The notes beneath the pieces were generated by a model, which was not told the DNA's origin, ran no database searches, and saw nothing but the letters and a program-made list of their open reading frames with translations. Position numbers and translations under genes: made by a program. A stretch of DNA of 32,210 bases from a virus, in the UHGV virus genome UHGV-0152653. The stretch is one strand, 5' to 3'. Position 1 is the first letter of the stretch. Every line of letters begins with the position of its first letter. Positions 1-11,263 of this stretch are shown piece by piece.

Positions 1-51
1 TATCACGCGAGGAGATTTTGAGGATGGTTGAGAGGATTGCTGGGTAGTAGA

Positions 52-77
52 TAAATTTCAGGCAACAAAAAACCCAT
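52..77. repeat. attL: attL core (left copy of 26-bp direct repeat)
   Basis: Exact 26-bp match to 32134-32159; flanking bases differ (a51 vs t32133; tta vs caa after the repeat). Confidence 0.8.
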
Positions 78-97
78 TTATGTAAACGGGTTAATGA

Positions 98-129
98 AAA
101 CAATAAGTTAGAGTAAAAACAATAAGTTG
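98..129. promoter_or_regulatory. Putative integrase arm-type binding sites (two direct copies of AAAACAATAAGTT)
   Basis: 13-bp direct repeat at 98-110 and 117-129, between the att core and the 3' end of int, where P2-type attP arm sites are expected. Confidence 0.45.
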
Positions 130-151
130 GGTTGGTGGTCAGTGGTGGTTA

Positions 152-1204
152 TTACGGGGTAATGCCAACCGCTGCCGCCACTTTGTCGCCACTTGGCAGC
201 GTTGCCAGAGGATTGAAACGGAGCGCCGTTTCCAGATGATCTGGTGCCAGATGTGCGTAACGCATAGTCATTTTTATATCGTGGTGTCCGAGAATTTTTT
301 GTAAGGCGAGAATGTTTCCACCCGACATCATGAAGTGCGCCGCAAATGTATGGCGCAGAACGTGTGTGAGTTGACCGCGAGGGAGCACGATAGACGTTTT
401 TTCCATCACGGATAAAAATTGAAAATAGCAGTCTGTAAAGAAATTGAACCCATCAAGCGCCATGATCTCTTCGTAAAGCTCTTTACTGATAGGGATGCTT
501 CTGTTTTTCTTCCCCTTCGTTCTGACAAAGGTAATTCGGTATTTGGTCACCTGTGAGCGGGTAAGATTTACGGCTTCACGCCAGCGTGCGCCTGTGCTTA
601 AGCATATCTTAACTACCAGTGCCAGAATCGGGTCCTGACGTTTACAATCAGCCAGCAATTCAACAATCTGCTCATGGGTAAGCCATGCCATCTCTTTTTC
701 TGCGATGGTGAATTTTCGCATGTTCTCCAGTGGGTTCGGATACGACCATTCGCCCAGGCGGGATAGTTCGCTAAAAACACTACTAAGATAGCTTTGCTCC
801 AGGTTAATAGTGACCGGGCTTGCTCCTTTTTTCCATTTCTCGCTGAAGTAGATCTCACCCGTCAGGCGTTTATCTCGATAGTGGGCAAACATTTTAGATG
901 TGAGATCGGTTGCAAGGGGATTGCCCAGAGCGTCAACCATCAACAGCAATTTGTCATAGACATGCTGCCCAGCGGTTAGAGCTTTACCATGTAGTTTGAA
1001 CCATAGCTCAACTACGTCTTTCAGTGTTCGACGATCCACTGATTCACCCAGCCAGGGCTTTGCTTCGGTTTCTTCCATCGTGTGGCGCTCAAAAGCCAGA
1101 GCTTCGCCTTTGGTGGCGAATTGTTTACGCACACGACGCCCACTACGTCCGGCGGGGTAACATTCGCAAAGCCATTTCCCTGTGGTGAGTTTTCGTACTG
1201 CCAT
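152..1204 (-). CDS. int: Tyrosine integrase (P2/186 family)
   Basis: ORF track 152..1360; C-terminal catalytic region with HxxR and terminal Tyr context (LRHTFAAHFMMSGGNILALQKILGHHDIKMTMRYAHL); start chosen at ATG 1204 (MAVRKLTTGKW...), preceded by GGAGGG; the in-frame upstream extension to 1360 is an alternative. Confidence 0.85.
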   Translation of the reverse strand: MAVRKLTTGKWLCECYPAGRSGRRVRKQFATKGEALAFERHTMEETEAKPWLGESVDRRTLKDVVELWFKLHGKALTAGQHVYDKLLLMVDALGNPLATDLTSKMFAHYRDKRLTGEIYFSEKWKKGASPVTINLEQSYLSSVFSELSRLGEWSYPNPLENMRKFTIAEKEMAWLTHEQIVELLADCKRQDPILALVVKICLSTGARWREAVNLTRSQVTKYRITFVRTKGKKNRSIPISKELYEEIMALDGFNFFTDCYFQFLSVMEKTSIVLPRGQLTHVLRHTFAAHFMMSGGNILALQKILGHHDIKMTMRYAHLAPDHLETALRFNPLATLPSGDKVAAAVGITP

Positions 1205-1392
1205 AAAAAATGCCCTCCAGTAGAGAGCATTTTTACTGTATGTATAACCAGTGTCAATGTATGAAATCCTACGACCATACATCTCACTGAAGCCATAATG
1301 AAGTTGGCTATTCTTTTTGCTATGTGAGCATGTAACTTTTGCGGTTAACCTGCGGCTCATTTTTATTTTAGACGCAGATATAAAAGCAAAAG

Positions 1393-1584
1393 TTATCGTG
1401 AGTTTTTAGTACAGATTTTTTTGGATTTACTAATAGTTCCATCATTGCAAACGAATTTGCCATCTGAGGTACAGTGAGAAACACCTCCCTTTTTCCCTGA
1501 GCAGGGATAATTTCTAGCATAGGTAGTTAGTGGGTTTAATAACAAAGAACATGACAAAACCACAAAAAATACCTTACCAAGCAT
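1393..1584 (-). CDS. Small secreted Cys-rich protein (63 aa) with N-terminal signal peptide; function unknown
   Basis: Strong RBS (GGGAGG) 5 nt upstream of ATG at 1584; hydrophobic N-terminus [23 protein letters not shown]; four Cys in the predicted mature 40-aa peptide; AT-rich; lies between cI and int on the lysogenic strand. Confidence 0.5.
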
Positions 1585-1599
1585 AGTTTCCTCCCGGTA

Positions 1600-2256
1600 C
1601 TATTTAACATACTTGACTGTTAAACTTATAATTTTACCAATTATTTCAATGTCTTCTATCTTGCATTCGAAGGCTCTGTTTCCACCCTCGACGAAGATTC
1701 TTCCACCGGGTAAACGAGTAATGTCACGGATCGTTATTTCGCCATCAATACTTATTACCCATTTACCATCACGTATATCATCAAATTCTTTATCACAAAT
1801 AAATTCAGAATTGTTATCTGTGATGACAAAAGGTTTTTTTAACGTAGAGGGTAGAAATTCCTTATCAAAAATATAAAAACCGTCTTTCTGCAATGCTCCA
1901 TCAGACAATAAATATTTTTCTACTTCTATAGTATTTGTATTTGCTGATGCTTGCTTTGAACCATGCCCTGTTGTTAGCCAATTAAGCGAGGTGCCCGTTT
2001 CAAGGGCGCACTGGATTACCCAATCTGCTGGAAAAATATCACGCATATAGCGCGTTGCCATGGTGCTCTTAGAAACACCTAAATGATCACAGAGAGCCTG
2101 ACGGGTACCGAACCCATATGCTTCAACTAAACGTTCTATGGCTTTCTTACCGCCGCTATTGAAATCCACAAGTCCTCCAAAGAAATCCAAAATTCGTTGA
2201 CAGATTCCAAAAGCGATCTTAAAGTTGAACCAGAAGTGTTCTTTTGGAGCCTTCAC
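1600..2256 (-). CDS. cI: CI-like immunity repressor (HTH)
   Basis: Position and orientation (divergent from apl, upstream of int); helix-turn-helix segment LGVSKSTMATRYMRD...CALETGTSLNWL; GTG start at 2256 with no clear RBS, so the start is uncertain. Confidence 0.65.
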   Translation of the reverse strand: MKAPKEHFWFNFKIAFGICQRILDFFGGLVDFNSGGKKAIERLVEAYGFGTRQALCDHLGVSKSTMATRYMRDIFPADWVIQCALETGTSLNWLTTGHGSKQASANTNTIEVEKYLLSDGALQKDGFYIFDKEFLPSTLKKPFVITDNNSEFICDKEFDDIRDGKWVISIDGEITIRDITRLPGGRIFVEGGNRAFECKIEDIEIIGKIISLTVKYVK

Positions 2257-2314
2257 TACTAATCACGACAAACAACGGCTCGCCACAAGCCATATCTAGA
2301 AGGAATGTTGCCTT

Positions 2315-2518
2315 ATGACACCTAACATTTCAATTACTCTGAATACACCACATGTCACAATCGAACGTTATAGCGAACTGACTGGCCTTTCTATTGATAC
2401 GATTAACGACATGTTGGCTGATGGCCGACTACCTCGTCATCGTCTTCGTAAAGACAAAAAACGTGAAAAGGTAATGATTAACCTGGCTGCTCTGACTGTT
2501 GATGCTTTGTCTGCTTAA
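2315..2518 (+). CDS. Apl/Cox-like excisionase and lytic-switch regulator
   Basis: First rightward gene, divergent from cI; small basic HTH protein ([28 protein letters not shown]), typical of Xis/Cox/Apl. Confidence 0.55.
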
Positions 2519-2582: not shown

Positions 2583-3092
2583 ATGTTTGATTACCAAGTT
2601 TCCAAACATCCACATTTTGATGAAGCCTGTCGTGCATTTGCATTGCGCCACAACTTGGTGCAACTGGCAGAACGTGCAGGTATGAATGTGCAGATTCTGC
2701 GGAACAAGCTGAATCCAGCTCAACCTCATTTATTAACCGCACCAGAAATTTGGTTGCTTACTGATCTGACAGAAGACTCAACACTGGTAGATGGTTTTCT
2801 GGCACAGATTCACTGCCTGCCATGTGTGCCGATTAATGAGGTGGCAAAAGAGAAACTGCCACATTACGTCATGAGTGCAACCGCAGAGATCGGGCGTGTT
2901 GCTGCAGGTGCGGTATCTGGCGATGTAAAAACCAGTGCAGGTCGTCGTGATGCCATCAGCAGCATTAACTCTGTAACACGACTGATGGCGCTGGCTGCTG
3001 TTTCATTGCAGGCCCGTTTACAGGCTAACCCTGCGATGGCGAGTGCGGTTGATACCGTAACTGGCCTCGGTGCTTCATTCGGTTTGCTGTGA
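2583..3092 (+). CDS. cII: CII-like lysogeny establishment regulator (phage 186 CII family)
   Basis: About 170 aa, immediately after apl; sequence [20 protein letters not shown]...[26 protein letters not shown] recalled as 186 CII-like; start set at the MFDY ATG. Confidence 0.6.
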
Positions 3093-3099
3093 GGTGCTT

Positions 3100-3396
3100 A
3101 TGCTGTCGAAAGAACCATCATTTGCATCGCTGCTGGTAAAACAAAGCCCGGCAATGCACTACGGTCACGGCTGGATCACGGGTGAGGATGGAAAACGCTG
3201 GCATCCATGTCATTCACAAGATGAATTGCTGTCTGAATTGACCACGAGGAAACGGAGAAAGTCCAAATGTATGCGGCAGAAAGTGAAATGGTTTATCAGT
3301 TTCGTTACAGAGGGGAGAGTTATTCAGTACCTGAAGATGATTTGCTCTGTTGCTATCCGTCATTGTCGGGCGATGGCAGTTACTTTTTCACGTTAA
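3100..3396 (+). CDS. Hypothetical early protein (start of the 186 fil/dhr-equivalent region); 3' end uncertain
   Basis: ATG at 3100 with GAGGTG RBS; first ~50 aa look protein-like, the C-terminal third looks low-complexity and overlaps the next ORF in another frame. Confidence 0.35.
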   Translation: MLSKEPSFASLLVKQSPAMHYGHGWITGEDGKRWHPCHSQDELLSELTTRKRRKSKCMRQKVKWFISFVTEGRVIQYLKMICSVAIRHCRAMAVTFSR

Positions 3397-9446: not shown

Positions 9447-9577
9447 CGCGCGCTGGGAGGTATAAGAATGAAGTACAATTAACTTCACTTTGTTGAGTAA
9501 AATGCTATAAGAATAATGCAAATTATTGAGTCCCATTAGTTCAAAACTTAGGGATATCTTATGTGAAAGGAGGTTAT

Positions 9578-11263
9578 ATGTTAGATAAATTGATTTTTAA
9601 TTCAGGAAGTAATCCAACATCTAAATCTTCATTATCGGTTGACTTGACTCCATTGACAATTTTTGTGGGGCCGAATAATAGTGGTAAATCTAGAGCTTTA
9701 ATCGATATAGAAAATCAACTGACAACCCGAAATGCAGCGCAGGGAGAAGTAATAAAACAGATATTAATCAAACCACTTTCTGAGGATGAAGCAAAAAAGG
9801 AAATTGAATCTTTACAAGTTGAGCCAAACCAGGATGAAAAGCATGCGGGGCATGTTGTTTTATCTAGGCTAAACCTCCGTGGTGAAGGAATATCTAGGAT
9901 TCTAGTGTATTTGGATGGAATGTTAAGAGAATTCCAGCAACCCAATGAATTAAATCGGGAGCATCTATATCAATATTACTCGTTGCTGACTCTAAGGTTG
10001 GATGGTAGAAGTCGACTTTCCTTAACTTCAAGTCAAGGTTCATCCGATTTACAAGGAGAACCTACGAATAACCTTTCATTTCTTTTTAAAAATAATAAAG
10101 CAAGGATGGAGCTAAGAGATATCGTTTTTGATGCTTTCGGGAAGTATCTTGTTATTGATCCAACAAATATAGGTTATCTTAGAATTCGTCTTTCTGAGCG
10201 CGCTCCTGAGACTGAACAAGAAGAAAGAGGTTGGGATGAAAAGTCAGTGCTTTTTCATTCAAAAGCGTCATTGATTACAGAGGCTAGCGATGGTGTTAAT
10301 GCTTTTGTTGGGATGATGATTTCGCTGATAGTTGGCTCACCAAAGGTGACTCTAATTGATGAGCCGGAAGCTTTTTTACATCCATCCTTATGCTCAAAGT
10401 TAGGAAAGGAAATATCTAGGATTAGTGCTCATAGTAATAAAAATGTGTTTATTTCAACGCATAGCGCTAATTTTTTAATGGGTTGTGTTCAAGGTAAAGT
10501 GCCATTGAATATAGTTAGGCTTACTTTTGATGGTAAATCTGGTACGTCTAGATTACTAACAAAGGAACAATTGACGCCGCTCATGAGAAATCCGTTATTA
10601 AGATCTATTGGTGTGCTAAACGCATTGTTTTATAATTACGTTGTCGTTACTGAAGCGGATGCAGATAGGGCATTTTATCAAGAGATTAATGAGCGCTTAT
10701 TGGCTGCTGGAGATCCTCGGGGTATTGAGGGATGCCTGTTTTTGAATGCTCAAAACAAACAAACTGTTTGGGATATAGTAAAACCCCTTCGTGAGCTAGG
10801 TATTCCCTGCGTTGGAGTGGTAGATATCGATATATTGAAGGAGGGAGGAGTTGTATGGAAAAAACCAATGCTTGGAGCTTTTTTTCCAGAAATGAAGCAT
10901 GAAACTTTAGGTTTGGAAAGACAAAAGCTTTTTCAAGCCTTCAAAAATACGAATAAAAATATGAAGACAGATGGGGGCCTCTCCTTGTTATCGGGTTCAG
11001 ATAAAACCGCCTGCTCTGAGTTTTTTAAATCCCTTTCAGATTATGGGGTTTTTGTCGTTCCAACGGGCGAGATCGAGTCTTGGTTGCAAAATCTTGAAAT
11101 AGGTCGAGGAAAGAATACTTGGTTAACAAGTATTTTCGAGAAGATGGGGGATGATCCTAATGATGAATCATATGTGAAGCCATCTGAAGGTGATGTTTGG
11201 GATTTTATTGGGAATATAAAGCACTGGTTGGTTAACCCTGAAAGGAAGGGTATTCCCGAGTGA
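9578..11263 (+). CDS. OLD-family ABC ATPase with C-terminal TOPRIM-like nuclease domain (P2 Old-like, class 1 OLD-type candidate defence protein)
   Basis: Walker A GPNNSGKS near the N-terminus; Walker B VTLIDEPEAF about 220 aa later (long insert typical of SMC/OLD ATPases); H-loop-like STHSANF; C-terminal VVVTEADAD and VGVVDIDIL resemble TOPRIM Glu and DxD motifs; AAAGGAGG RBS before ATG 9578; AT-rich island. Confidence 0.6.
   Translation: MLDKLIFNSGSNPTSKSSLSVDLTPLTIFVGPNNSGKSRALIDIENQLTTRNAAQGEVIKQILIKPLSEDEAKKEIESLQVEPNQDEKHAGHVVLSRLNLRGEGISRILVYLDGMLREFQQPNELNREHLYQYYSLLTLRLDGRSRLSLTSSQGSSDLQGEPTNNLSFLFKNNKARMELRDIVFDAFGKYLVIDPTNIGYLRIRLSERAPETEQEERGWDEKSVLFHSKASLITEASDGVNAFVGMMISLIVGSPKVTLIDEPEAFLHPSLCSKLGKEISRISAHSNKNVFISTHSANFLMGCVQGKVPLNIVRLTFDGKSGTSRLLTKEQLTPLMRNPLLRSIGVLNALFYNYVVVTEADADRAFYQEINERLLAAGDPRGIEGCLFLNAQNKQTVWDIVKPLRELGIPCVGVVDIDILKEGGVVWKKPMLGAFFPEMKHETLGLERQKLFQAFKNTNKNMKTDGGLSLLSGSDKTACSEFFKSLSDYGVFVVPTGEIESWLQNLEIGRGKNTWLTSIFEKMGDDPNDESYVKPSEGDVWDFIGNIKHWLVNPERKGIPE

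Follow-up and report, generated by a model that had tools for sequence, protein, structure and literature searches.

A YdcA-family peptide gene in the lysogenic operon of a 186-like Escherichia coli prophage: a candidate for envelope-level protection of the lysogen

In the record of phage 186, a single lysogenic operon runs from the promoters pL and pE through cI, int and orf69 to a terminator, and the last base of cI is overlapped by the start of int. Phage P2 has a gap of 115 nt between C and int that holds no gene. In Vibrio phage K139 (Peduoviridae), the same kind of operon, reading from PL through cI to glo and int, carries a gene whose product is annotated in GenBank as 'periplasmic protein; involved in phage exclusion' and is referred to as a soluble periplasmic exclusion protein in PMC3952083. 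Other lysogeny-module genes, ltp of Streptococcus thermophilus phage TP-J34 and sie2009 of lactococcal phages, encode prophage-expressed proteins that are exposed outside the cytoplasmic membrane and block DNA injection (PMC3952083). Here we describe ORF63, a 63-codon gene lying between cI and int in virus genome UHGV-0152653, a stretch of 32,210 nt that we refer to as the window. Since cI and int overlap within one operon in phage 186, ORF63 is an insertion into that operon. Our best reading, to which we assign a probability of about 0.4, is that ORF63, a YdcA-family gene that a 186-like E. coli prophage carries as cargo within its lysogenic operon, encodes a product that protects the lysogen at the level of the envelope.

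Family membership was clear from profile searches. The ORF63 product scored 115.8 bits against the NCBIfam model NF007463 (PRK10040.1-2), for which the curated cut-off is 93, but only 68.5 bits against the K-12-type subfamily model NF007462, for which it is 118. It matched phrog_6000 in the PHROG collection (1.9e-34), and both its close homologues and the representative of its cluster carry the precomputed Pfam assignment PF27300 'YdcA'. A Pfam scan of the peptide, made with a copy that predates PF27300, returned only a sub-threshold chance match (GULLO2-like, E = 0.075). The protein is present in RefSeq as WP_000900883.1, 'YdcA family protein'. Neither the sequence nor the family is thus new to the databases, and the family is uncharacterised. 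The sequence-only reading of this locus had proposed searching small-protein and bacteriocin families and had missed that the peptide falls into a family with a name (YdcA/PRK10040/PF27300/PHROG 6000). An exhaustive profile search with a threshold of E ≤ 1e-3 collected 450 clusters, each represented at 50% identity, among them tandem forms with two or three YdcA domains. Members of the family occur in Alpha-, Beta- and Gammaproteobacteria and Myxococcota. Its UniRef cluster is named 'Conjugal transfer protein', which we judged to be an unreliable propagated name. Plasmid matches of the family lay in chromosomal-type or prophage contexts or on Acinetobacter and Rhizobium plasmids, and no transfer genes were seen in the one non-prophage plasmid context in which we looked for them (p3ABAYE). 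The 'ydcA' genes of the gonococcal genetic island and F-like plasmids have only the name in common with this family.

ORF63 is a genuine gene under strong purifying selection, because pairwise dN/dS across four E. coli variants is 0.02–0.11 and the product has hundreds of homologues. A common E. coli variant differs at 12 of 192 nt, and 11 of these changes are synonymous and one nonsynonymous. The exact protein occurs on at least 1000 contigs of public collections. A module of cI plus ORF63 was matched in 666 of 5426 complete E. coli genomes, and ORF63 alone in 648. When the same module was compared with deposited phages by megablast, no phage was matched. Deposited phages match the int side of the window (1..1282, ~96%) and the sequence from 2264 onward (~89%), but not the block 1283..2263, so no characterised phage has exactly this module. 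The block is thus flanked by mosaic boundaries, as if cI and ORF63 were exchanged jointly, in a single immunity module.

The ORF63 product has the features of a small exported protein. Its first residues include Lys4 followed by an uncharged run of 19 residues (best 9-residue mean hydropathy, 2.7), and T-Y-A occupies positions −3 to −1, so that signal peptidase I is predicted to cut a Sec-type leader after Ala23. The alanine at −1 is invariant in one of our family alignments (A1); among 166 members this position is A, G or S, and the median leader length is 23 residues. The 40 residues of the mature peptide comprise four Cys, nine Lys/Arg and two Asp/Glu, with a net charge of +7. They carry the four-cysteine motif PCSGxKGG[VI]xxC...F[VI]CxDGxxSxSKxxC, and alignments of 26 and 150 sequences show little or no variation at C28, C38, C46 and C58 or at the other positions of the motif. 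In these family alignments the leaders diverge freely while the mature motif hardly varies. The four cysteines would form two disulfides. An AF2 model of the domain core had pLDDT values of 86–89. The signal peptide and the four-cysteine mature peptide of ~40 residues had been anticipated from the sequence; the signal peptide is a prediction that draws on heuristics, on the family alignment and on the signal sequence described for YdcA of E. coli K-12.

We considered whether the leader might instead be that of a lipoprotein. The only leader cysteine, C12, lies within the hydrophobic core with more hydrophobic residues behind it and does not fit a lipobox, and since it is not conserved among homologues the product is not a lipoprotein. 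One suggestion in the sequence-only reading was a bacteriocin-like peptide, that is, a secreted toxin of bacteriocin or microcin type. A small, cationic, cysteine-rich peptide with an N-terminal leader would agree with this. However, the leader resembles Sec leaders cut by signal peptidase I and not those of double-glycine type, Sec export ends in the periplasm, and the neighbours are cI and int, with no immunity, ABC-export or modification gene nearby. Moreover, the family has core chromosomal single-gene paralogues in many species, and in one secretion machine a structural subunit is built from a homologous domain (see below). We therefore abandoned this option as extremely unlikely.

The gene sits inside the lysogenic operon. 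As the sequence-only reading had stated, ORF63 follows the repressor gene directly on the same strand: the cI stop codon (TAG, 1602..1600) is separated from the ORF63 start by 15 nt, and no terminator-like site was found in this gap. The absence of a gene between C and int in P2, noted in the same reading, also proved correct. One correction concerns the genetic switch. The repressor has the Phage_CI_repr and Phage_CI_C domains, and on the opposite strand, divergent from cI, the Pfam scan identified genes for an Apl/Cox-like protein and for CII (CP76); the switch is therefore of the 186 type and not of the P2 C type. Given how the operon is mapped in 186 and how this locus is arranged, transcription from pL, for maintenance, and from pE, which CII activates for establishment, would in both cases run from cI into ORF63, and the strong ribosome-binding site would give efficient translation, so that the peptide would be made whenever the repressor is made. 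The leader would then direct Sec export, with cleavage after Ala23, as both the sequence and the conservation in the family suggest. In the periplasm the cationic 40-residue peptide would fold with two disulfides, a proposal that draws on the four invariant cysteines and on the disulfide-pinned lobes of a Legionella relative, Dis2. These first three steps very probably hold. Beyond them, the peptide would bind a ligand that is conserved across Proteobacteria and is not phage-specific, perhaps some component on the inner side of the outer membrane, as in the docking of Dis2, or else a polyanion such as DNA. The likeliest outcome would be protection of the lysogen at its envelope, with incoming phage or foreign DNA hindered in crossing the periplasm, which would amount to superinfection exclusion in the manner of the unrelated Glo. 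Exclusion or defence as the selected function of ORF63 is a tentative proposal that falls somewhat short of even odds.

Comparison with other prophages showed that the junction between cI and int is a cargo-exchange site. Phage vB_EcoM-813R9, whose integrase is 99.7% identical to that of the window and which has the attachment neighbourhood (rcdA) in common with it, carries PD-Lambda-1 in this slot (PADLOC, 3e-120; T5orf172/MUG113 plus DUF4041). In several E. coli and Klebsiella prophages a KAP NTPase (PADLOC PDC-S20, 2.4e-171) lies downstream of the YdcA gene, and in Klebsiella phage 4LV2017 the slot holds a 349-residue gene of unknown function. In K139 it contains orf2 (BRCT) and glo. According to a 2026 survey, the interval from integrase to primase is among the minor hotspots for defence genes in P2-like prophages (PMC13586616). 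PD-Lambda-1 and PDC-S20 share the slot with ORF63 in sister prophages, but are large cytoplasmic proteins of ATPase or nuclease type, unlike the predicted 40-residue periplasmic peptide. Elsewhere in the window (9563..11263, plus strand) we found a gene for a 566-residue OLD-family protein with AAA_15/AAA_21 and an OLD-like TOPRIM domain (PADLOC Old, 1.3e-20). Its site, flanked by the replication gene and the portal gene, is the classical cargo hotspot of P2, and the prophage therefore has at least one recognizable defence gene besides ORF63.

Glo resembles ORF63 in setting. The two genes occupy the same place in the same kind of operon, Glo is exported as the ORF63 product is predicted to be, and the C-terminal domains of the K139 and window CI proteins are homologous. 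Glo differs, however, in having 137 residues and only two cysteines, which lie towards opposite ends of the mature protein, and it lacks the four-cysteine YdcA motif. Homology between them was rejected, as hhalign of the YdcA-family profile against Glo aligned five columns, in the leader only. We regard Glo as a likely functional and positional analogue, and as nothing closer. Ltp and Sie2009 resemble ORF63 in belonging to lysogeny modules, but are larger, lipid- or membrane-anchored and unrelated in sequence, and they act in hosts with a different envelope.

We scanned the context of 80 YdcA-family loci, taking one genome per species, and in about 18 of them the YdcA gene directly follows a prophage repressor gene, from one of two unrelated families. 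A 186-type CI gene was nearby at 11 of the 80 loci, and at about 10 of these it lay directly upstream on the same strand. Among these loci were ones from E. coli, Buttiauxella, Yersinia, Pectobacterium and the Pasteurellaceae with phage HP2. At seven more loci, all betaproteobacterial (Comamonas, Iodobacter, Aquabacterium and Hydrogenophilales), the YdcA gene was preceded by an unrelated repressor with HTH_3 and Peptidase_S24 domains, in some cases beside P2-like tail genes. Three further enterobacterial subfamilies, P0012 (E. coli), P0028 (Klebsiella) and P0019 (Enterobacter), likewise have the order cI, YdcA, in some cases the KAP NTPase, and int, and in Enterobacter merely 2 nt separate YdcA from int. 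In Haemophilus phage HP2 (NC_003315) an intact but unannotated YdcA-family reading frame of 60 residues lies at 2920..3102, and the same position is occupied in phage S2; in both, the ATG of the homologue overlaps the cI stop codon. In HP2 it is followed by orf1(S), a gene for a secreted OB-fold tRNA_anti-like protein (PF12869, 2.8e-13) and then int. The searchable literature yielded no report of the repressor-linked synteny across two repressor families, nor of the unannotated HP2/S2 gene. The sequence-only reading had put forward a lysogen-expressed accessory factor, and this idea is reinforced because YdcA genes recur after repressors, because the corresponding slots of sister prophages hold defence cargo and because the K139 slot holds Glo.

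Across the repressor-linked prophages, identity to the window was 73–100% for the mature YdcA peptide, 35–87% for CI and 49–99% for Int. The YdcA leaders were 23–44% identical in all but two comparisons, the higher values coming from a near-identical variant and from an alignment of five residues. Since the mature peptide is so strongly retained while CI varies, its bound target is presumably conserved and independent of immunity type.

Many family members have no connection with phages, and these bring in a different explanation. YdcA of E. coli K-12 (b1419; 57 residues) is a chromosomal paralogue for which a signal sequence has been described. As predicted for the ORF63 product, it combines a leader of putative Sec type with one four-cysteine domain of ~35 residues with the same motif, and its mature region is ~70% identical to that of ORF63. 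It differs in its cybB-ydcA-hokB locus on the chromosome, compared with the prophage repressor operon and PRK10040.1-2 subfamily of ORF63. Other chromosomal members lie next to ubiB in Moraxella bovoculi, in an Atlantibacter/Citrobacter island and between prc and htpX in Providencia. Further members are found elsewhere in phages and on plasmids. An RNA polymerase holoenzyme site for RpoS lies between rydC and ydcA (PMC5493296). Deletion of ydcA in E. coli W leads to sensitivity to 300 mM 3-hydroxypropionate (PMC7642389), and the same paper cites earlier work in which ydcA is controlled by YdcI and induced at pH 5. ORF63 may, then, be a host-fitness gene linked to the repressor, an extra copy of a gene for a housekeeping periplasmic envelope or stress protein that makes the lysogen more tolerant of acid, organic acids or stress on the envelope but does not act directly on other phages. 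The core paralogues in many taxa, the 3-hydroxypropionate phenotype and acid induction, and the RpoS site would all suit such a role, and the very slow evolution of the mature peptide fits a conserved host ligand. On the other hand, it leaves unexplained both the consistent tie to two unrelated repressor families and the anti-phage cargo that otherwise fills the slot. E. coli lysogens already have ydcA, and the stress phenotype comes from one study and has no known mechanism. On balance we consider this explanation rather unlikely.

Several observations, some of them the same, nevertheless weigh against envelope-level protection as the role of ORF63. The lysogen role assigned to ORF63 and its phage-borne homologues is read from sequence and context, and the signal peptide and disulfides are predictions. 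The PADLOC-DB 2.0 models gave no family for ORF63 at E ≤ 1. The only reported ydcA phenotype is the 3-hydroxypropionate sensitivity, the acid induction being cited from earlier work. Because many plain chromosomal members occur outside phages (E. coli ydcA, Providencia and Moraxella bovoculi among them), a general envelope function fits better than a dedicated anti-phage one, and the extreme conservation of the mature peptide is unlike that of arms-race proteins that face phage components. Finally, loss of the Legionella relative Dis2 has only subtle effects.

In Providencia spp. the family member is a core gene, seen at eight of our loci, between prc, for a tail-specific periplasmic protease, and htpX, for a membrane protease. 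A gene set between two protease genes could be taken to favour a small, disulfide-rich periplasmic protease inhibitor of the Pin-II or ecotin kind, and ORF63 does give weak Pin-II matches in which three of four cysteines align. Yet the E-values (0.056–1.5) are not significant, and the matches are redundant entries of one family. Pin-II inhibitors have eight cysteines in four disulfides compared with four cysteines in ORF63, and are absent from the fold-search matches; moreover, the Providencia synteny represents a single evolutionary event. The matches probably reflect a coincidence of cysteine pattern, and we regard an inhibitor as very improbable.

A relationship of a different kind emerged from a profile search of the Protein Data Bank. 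It hit chain AN of 7MUC, the Legionella protein Dis2 (Lpg0823), with E = 4.8e-5, or 2.2e-4 for the mature peptide alone; in 7MUC, 7MUD and related entries this chain is labelled 'Neurogenic locus notch protein homolog'. Both lobes of Dis2 align with the YdcA domain. Dis2 was also the top Foldseek match (probability 0.94), although at E = 0.17 this is not significant by itself. A Dis2-like fragment carries PF27300; a search with a Dis2 fragment as query returned only two fragments, both Dis2-like, and full-length Lpg0823 was not among them. Dis2 is an exported subunit of the Dot/Icm system that lies at the periplasmic face of the outer membrane, is pinned by disulfides in cryo-electron microscopy structures and docks on the lipoproteins DotC, DotD and DotK. 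It has been described as Legionella-specific and without structural neighbours. Compared with ORF63, which is a single domain with four cysteines, Dis2 is a two-lobed tandem with ten cysteines in five disulfides. It is also part of a secretion machine, whereas the ORF63 domain is free and lies in a phage, near cI, int, apl and cII and away from any type IV secretion genes. The YdcA domain is homologous to both Dis2 lobes, so that Dis2 seems to have arisen by duplication, in tandem, of a periplasmic module found throughout the Proteobacteria. This relationship was not found in the searchable literature.

Domain fusions offer a further indication of where the YdcA domain works. Among the 150 best family representatives, eight have a second recognizable Pfam domain, and in six of these it belongs to a secreted nuclease, from three unrelated families (Endonuclease_NS in four, SNase and PLDc_2). 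We found no account of such fusions in the literature that could be searched. The YdcA domain always stands directly behind the signal peptide, so it works outside the cytoplasm, and its core has a mean net charge of +3. The fusions suggest that the domain binds a polyanion, for instance DNA, or else that it serves as an anchor in the envelope. Pursued to its end, the first option would make ORF63 a periplasmic nucleic-acid binder that sequesters or blocks transforming, conjugative or phage DNA, or modulates nucleases. This overlaps with the exclusion model in mechanism, and names DNA as the ligand. The secreted nucleases in six of the eight recognizable fusions, the positive charge of the core and, at +7, of the mature ORF63 peptide, the OB-fold protein encoded by the next gene of the HP2 operon and the phage-borne copies in naturally competent genera (Haemophilus, Moraxella and Acinetobacter) are consistent with such an activity. 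In opposition to this, the contacts of Dis2, which has no rival as a relative of characterised structure, are with lipoproteins and not with DNA; an anchor in the envelope would explain the fused domain just as well; fusions of this kind are rare and mostly metagenomic; and fold searches recognised no DNA-binding fold. A dedicated nucleic-acid binder therefore seems improbable to us. In a bolder generalisation, which we also think decidedly doubtful, the YdcA domain would be a minimal periplasmic module of ~35 residues that binds DNA or blocks a DNA conduit, and that has been wired repeatedly to repressors in phages of Gamma- and Betaproteobacteria as the smallest known factor for superinfection exclusion or DNA-entry exclusion, with recruitment to secreted nucleases and, in tandem, to Dis2 of the Legionella type IV secretion system, which translocates DNA and protein.

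If the ORF63 product does act at the envelope of lysogens, as we propose, a function would be assigned to a widespread orphan family and to a module present in ~12% of complete E. coli genomes. A 40-residue periplasmic protein would join the short list of Gram-negative exclusion factors, and it would become clear what the supposedly Legionella-specific Dis2 is made of. Should it prove to be a stress or fitness gene instead, it would be an ordinary case of prophage cargo that duplicates a host gene. The system is tractable, with one tiny gene, a defined operon and natural sister prophages that lack the gene or carry other cargo.

The features of the locus are collected in Table 1. The open reading frame and its ribosome-binding site agree with the sequence-only reading. 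The start of cI is given as in RefSeq, a GTG at 2169; the longest reading frame extends to 2256. The window integrase is 54.5% identical to that of phage 186.

Table 1. Features of the cI–ORF63–int region of the window (positions in the 32,210-nt stretch)
Feature	Position	Strand	Basis and details
ORF63, YdcA-family gene	1393..1584	minus	63 codons plus TAA stop (1395..1393); ORF listing, family profiles, RefSeq, dN/dS
Predicted Sec signal peptide, residues 1–23	1516..1584	minus	n/h/c-region heuristics and family alignment
Mature 40-residue peptide, one YdcA/PF27300 domain	1396..1515	minus	Motif, cysteines, charge count, Dis2 homology
Shine-Dalgarno sequence GGGAGG	1590..1595	minus	Sequence reading; 5-nt spacer AAACT (1589..1585), ATG 1584..1582
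186-type CI repressor gene, operon-upstream of ORF63	1600..2169	minus	Pfam Phage_CI_repr 3.3e-31, Phage_CI_C 2.6e-29
Structured spacer of 188 nt, ORF63 to int	1205..1392	minus	Fold z-score −6.1
Tyrosine integrase gene, downstream in the lysogenic operon	152..1204	minus	Pfam Int_N 4.9e-32, Phage_integrase 7.3e-22

Promoter-like sites around the junction of cI and ORF63 were no more numerous in the region than expected by chance. One of them, a σ70-like site (TTAACA-17-TATAAT, 11 of 12 consensus positions) at 1604..1632 on the plus strand, is directed antisense into the 3′ end of cI. An Rfam scan of 1100..2400 matched no family, the best hit being a sub-threshold Phe_leader (E = 0.64). Within the spacer, a minus-strand hairpin, AAAAAUGCUCUCUACUGGAGGGCAUUUUUU, lies immediately 5′ of the int ATG (1204). 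It ends in a U-run and holds the sequence GGAGGG, which is likely to be the int ribosome-binding site. Ahead of this hairpin, at 1257..1229, is a promoter-like site (TTGACA-N17-AAAAAT). The block 1205..1257 is kept with the int family in other prophages, even in Yersinia, and is thus part of the int module. It may regulate translation or termination at int independently of cI and ORF63.

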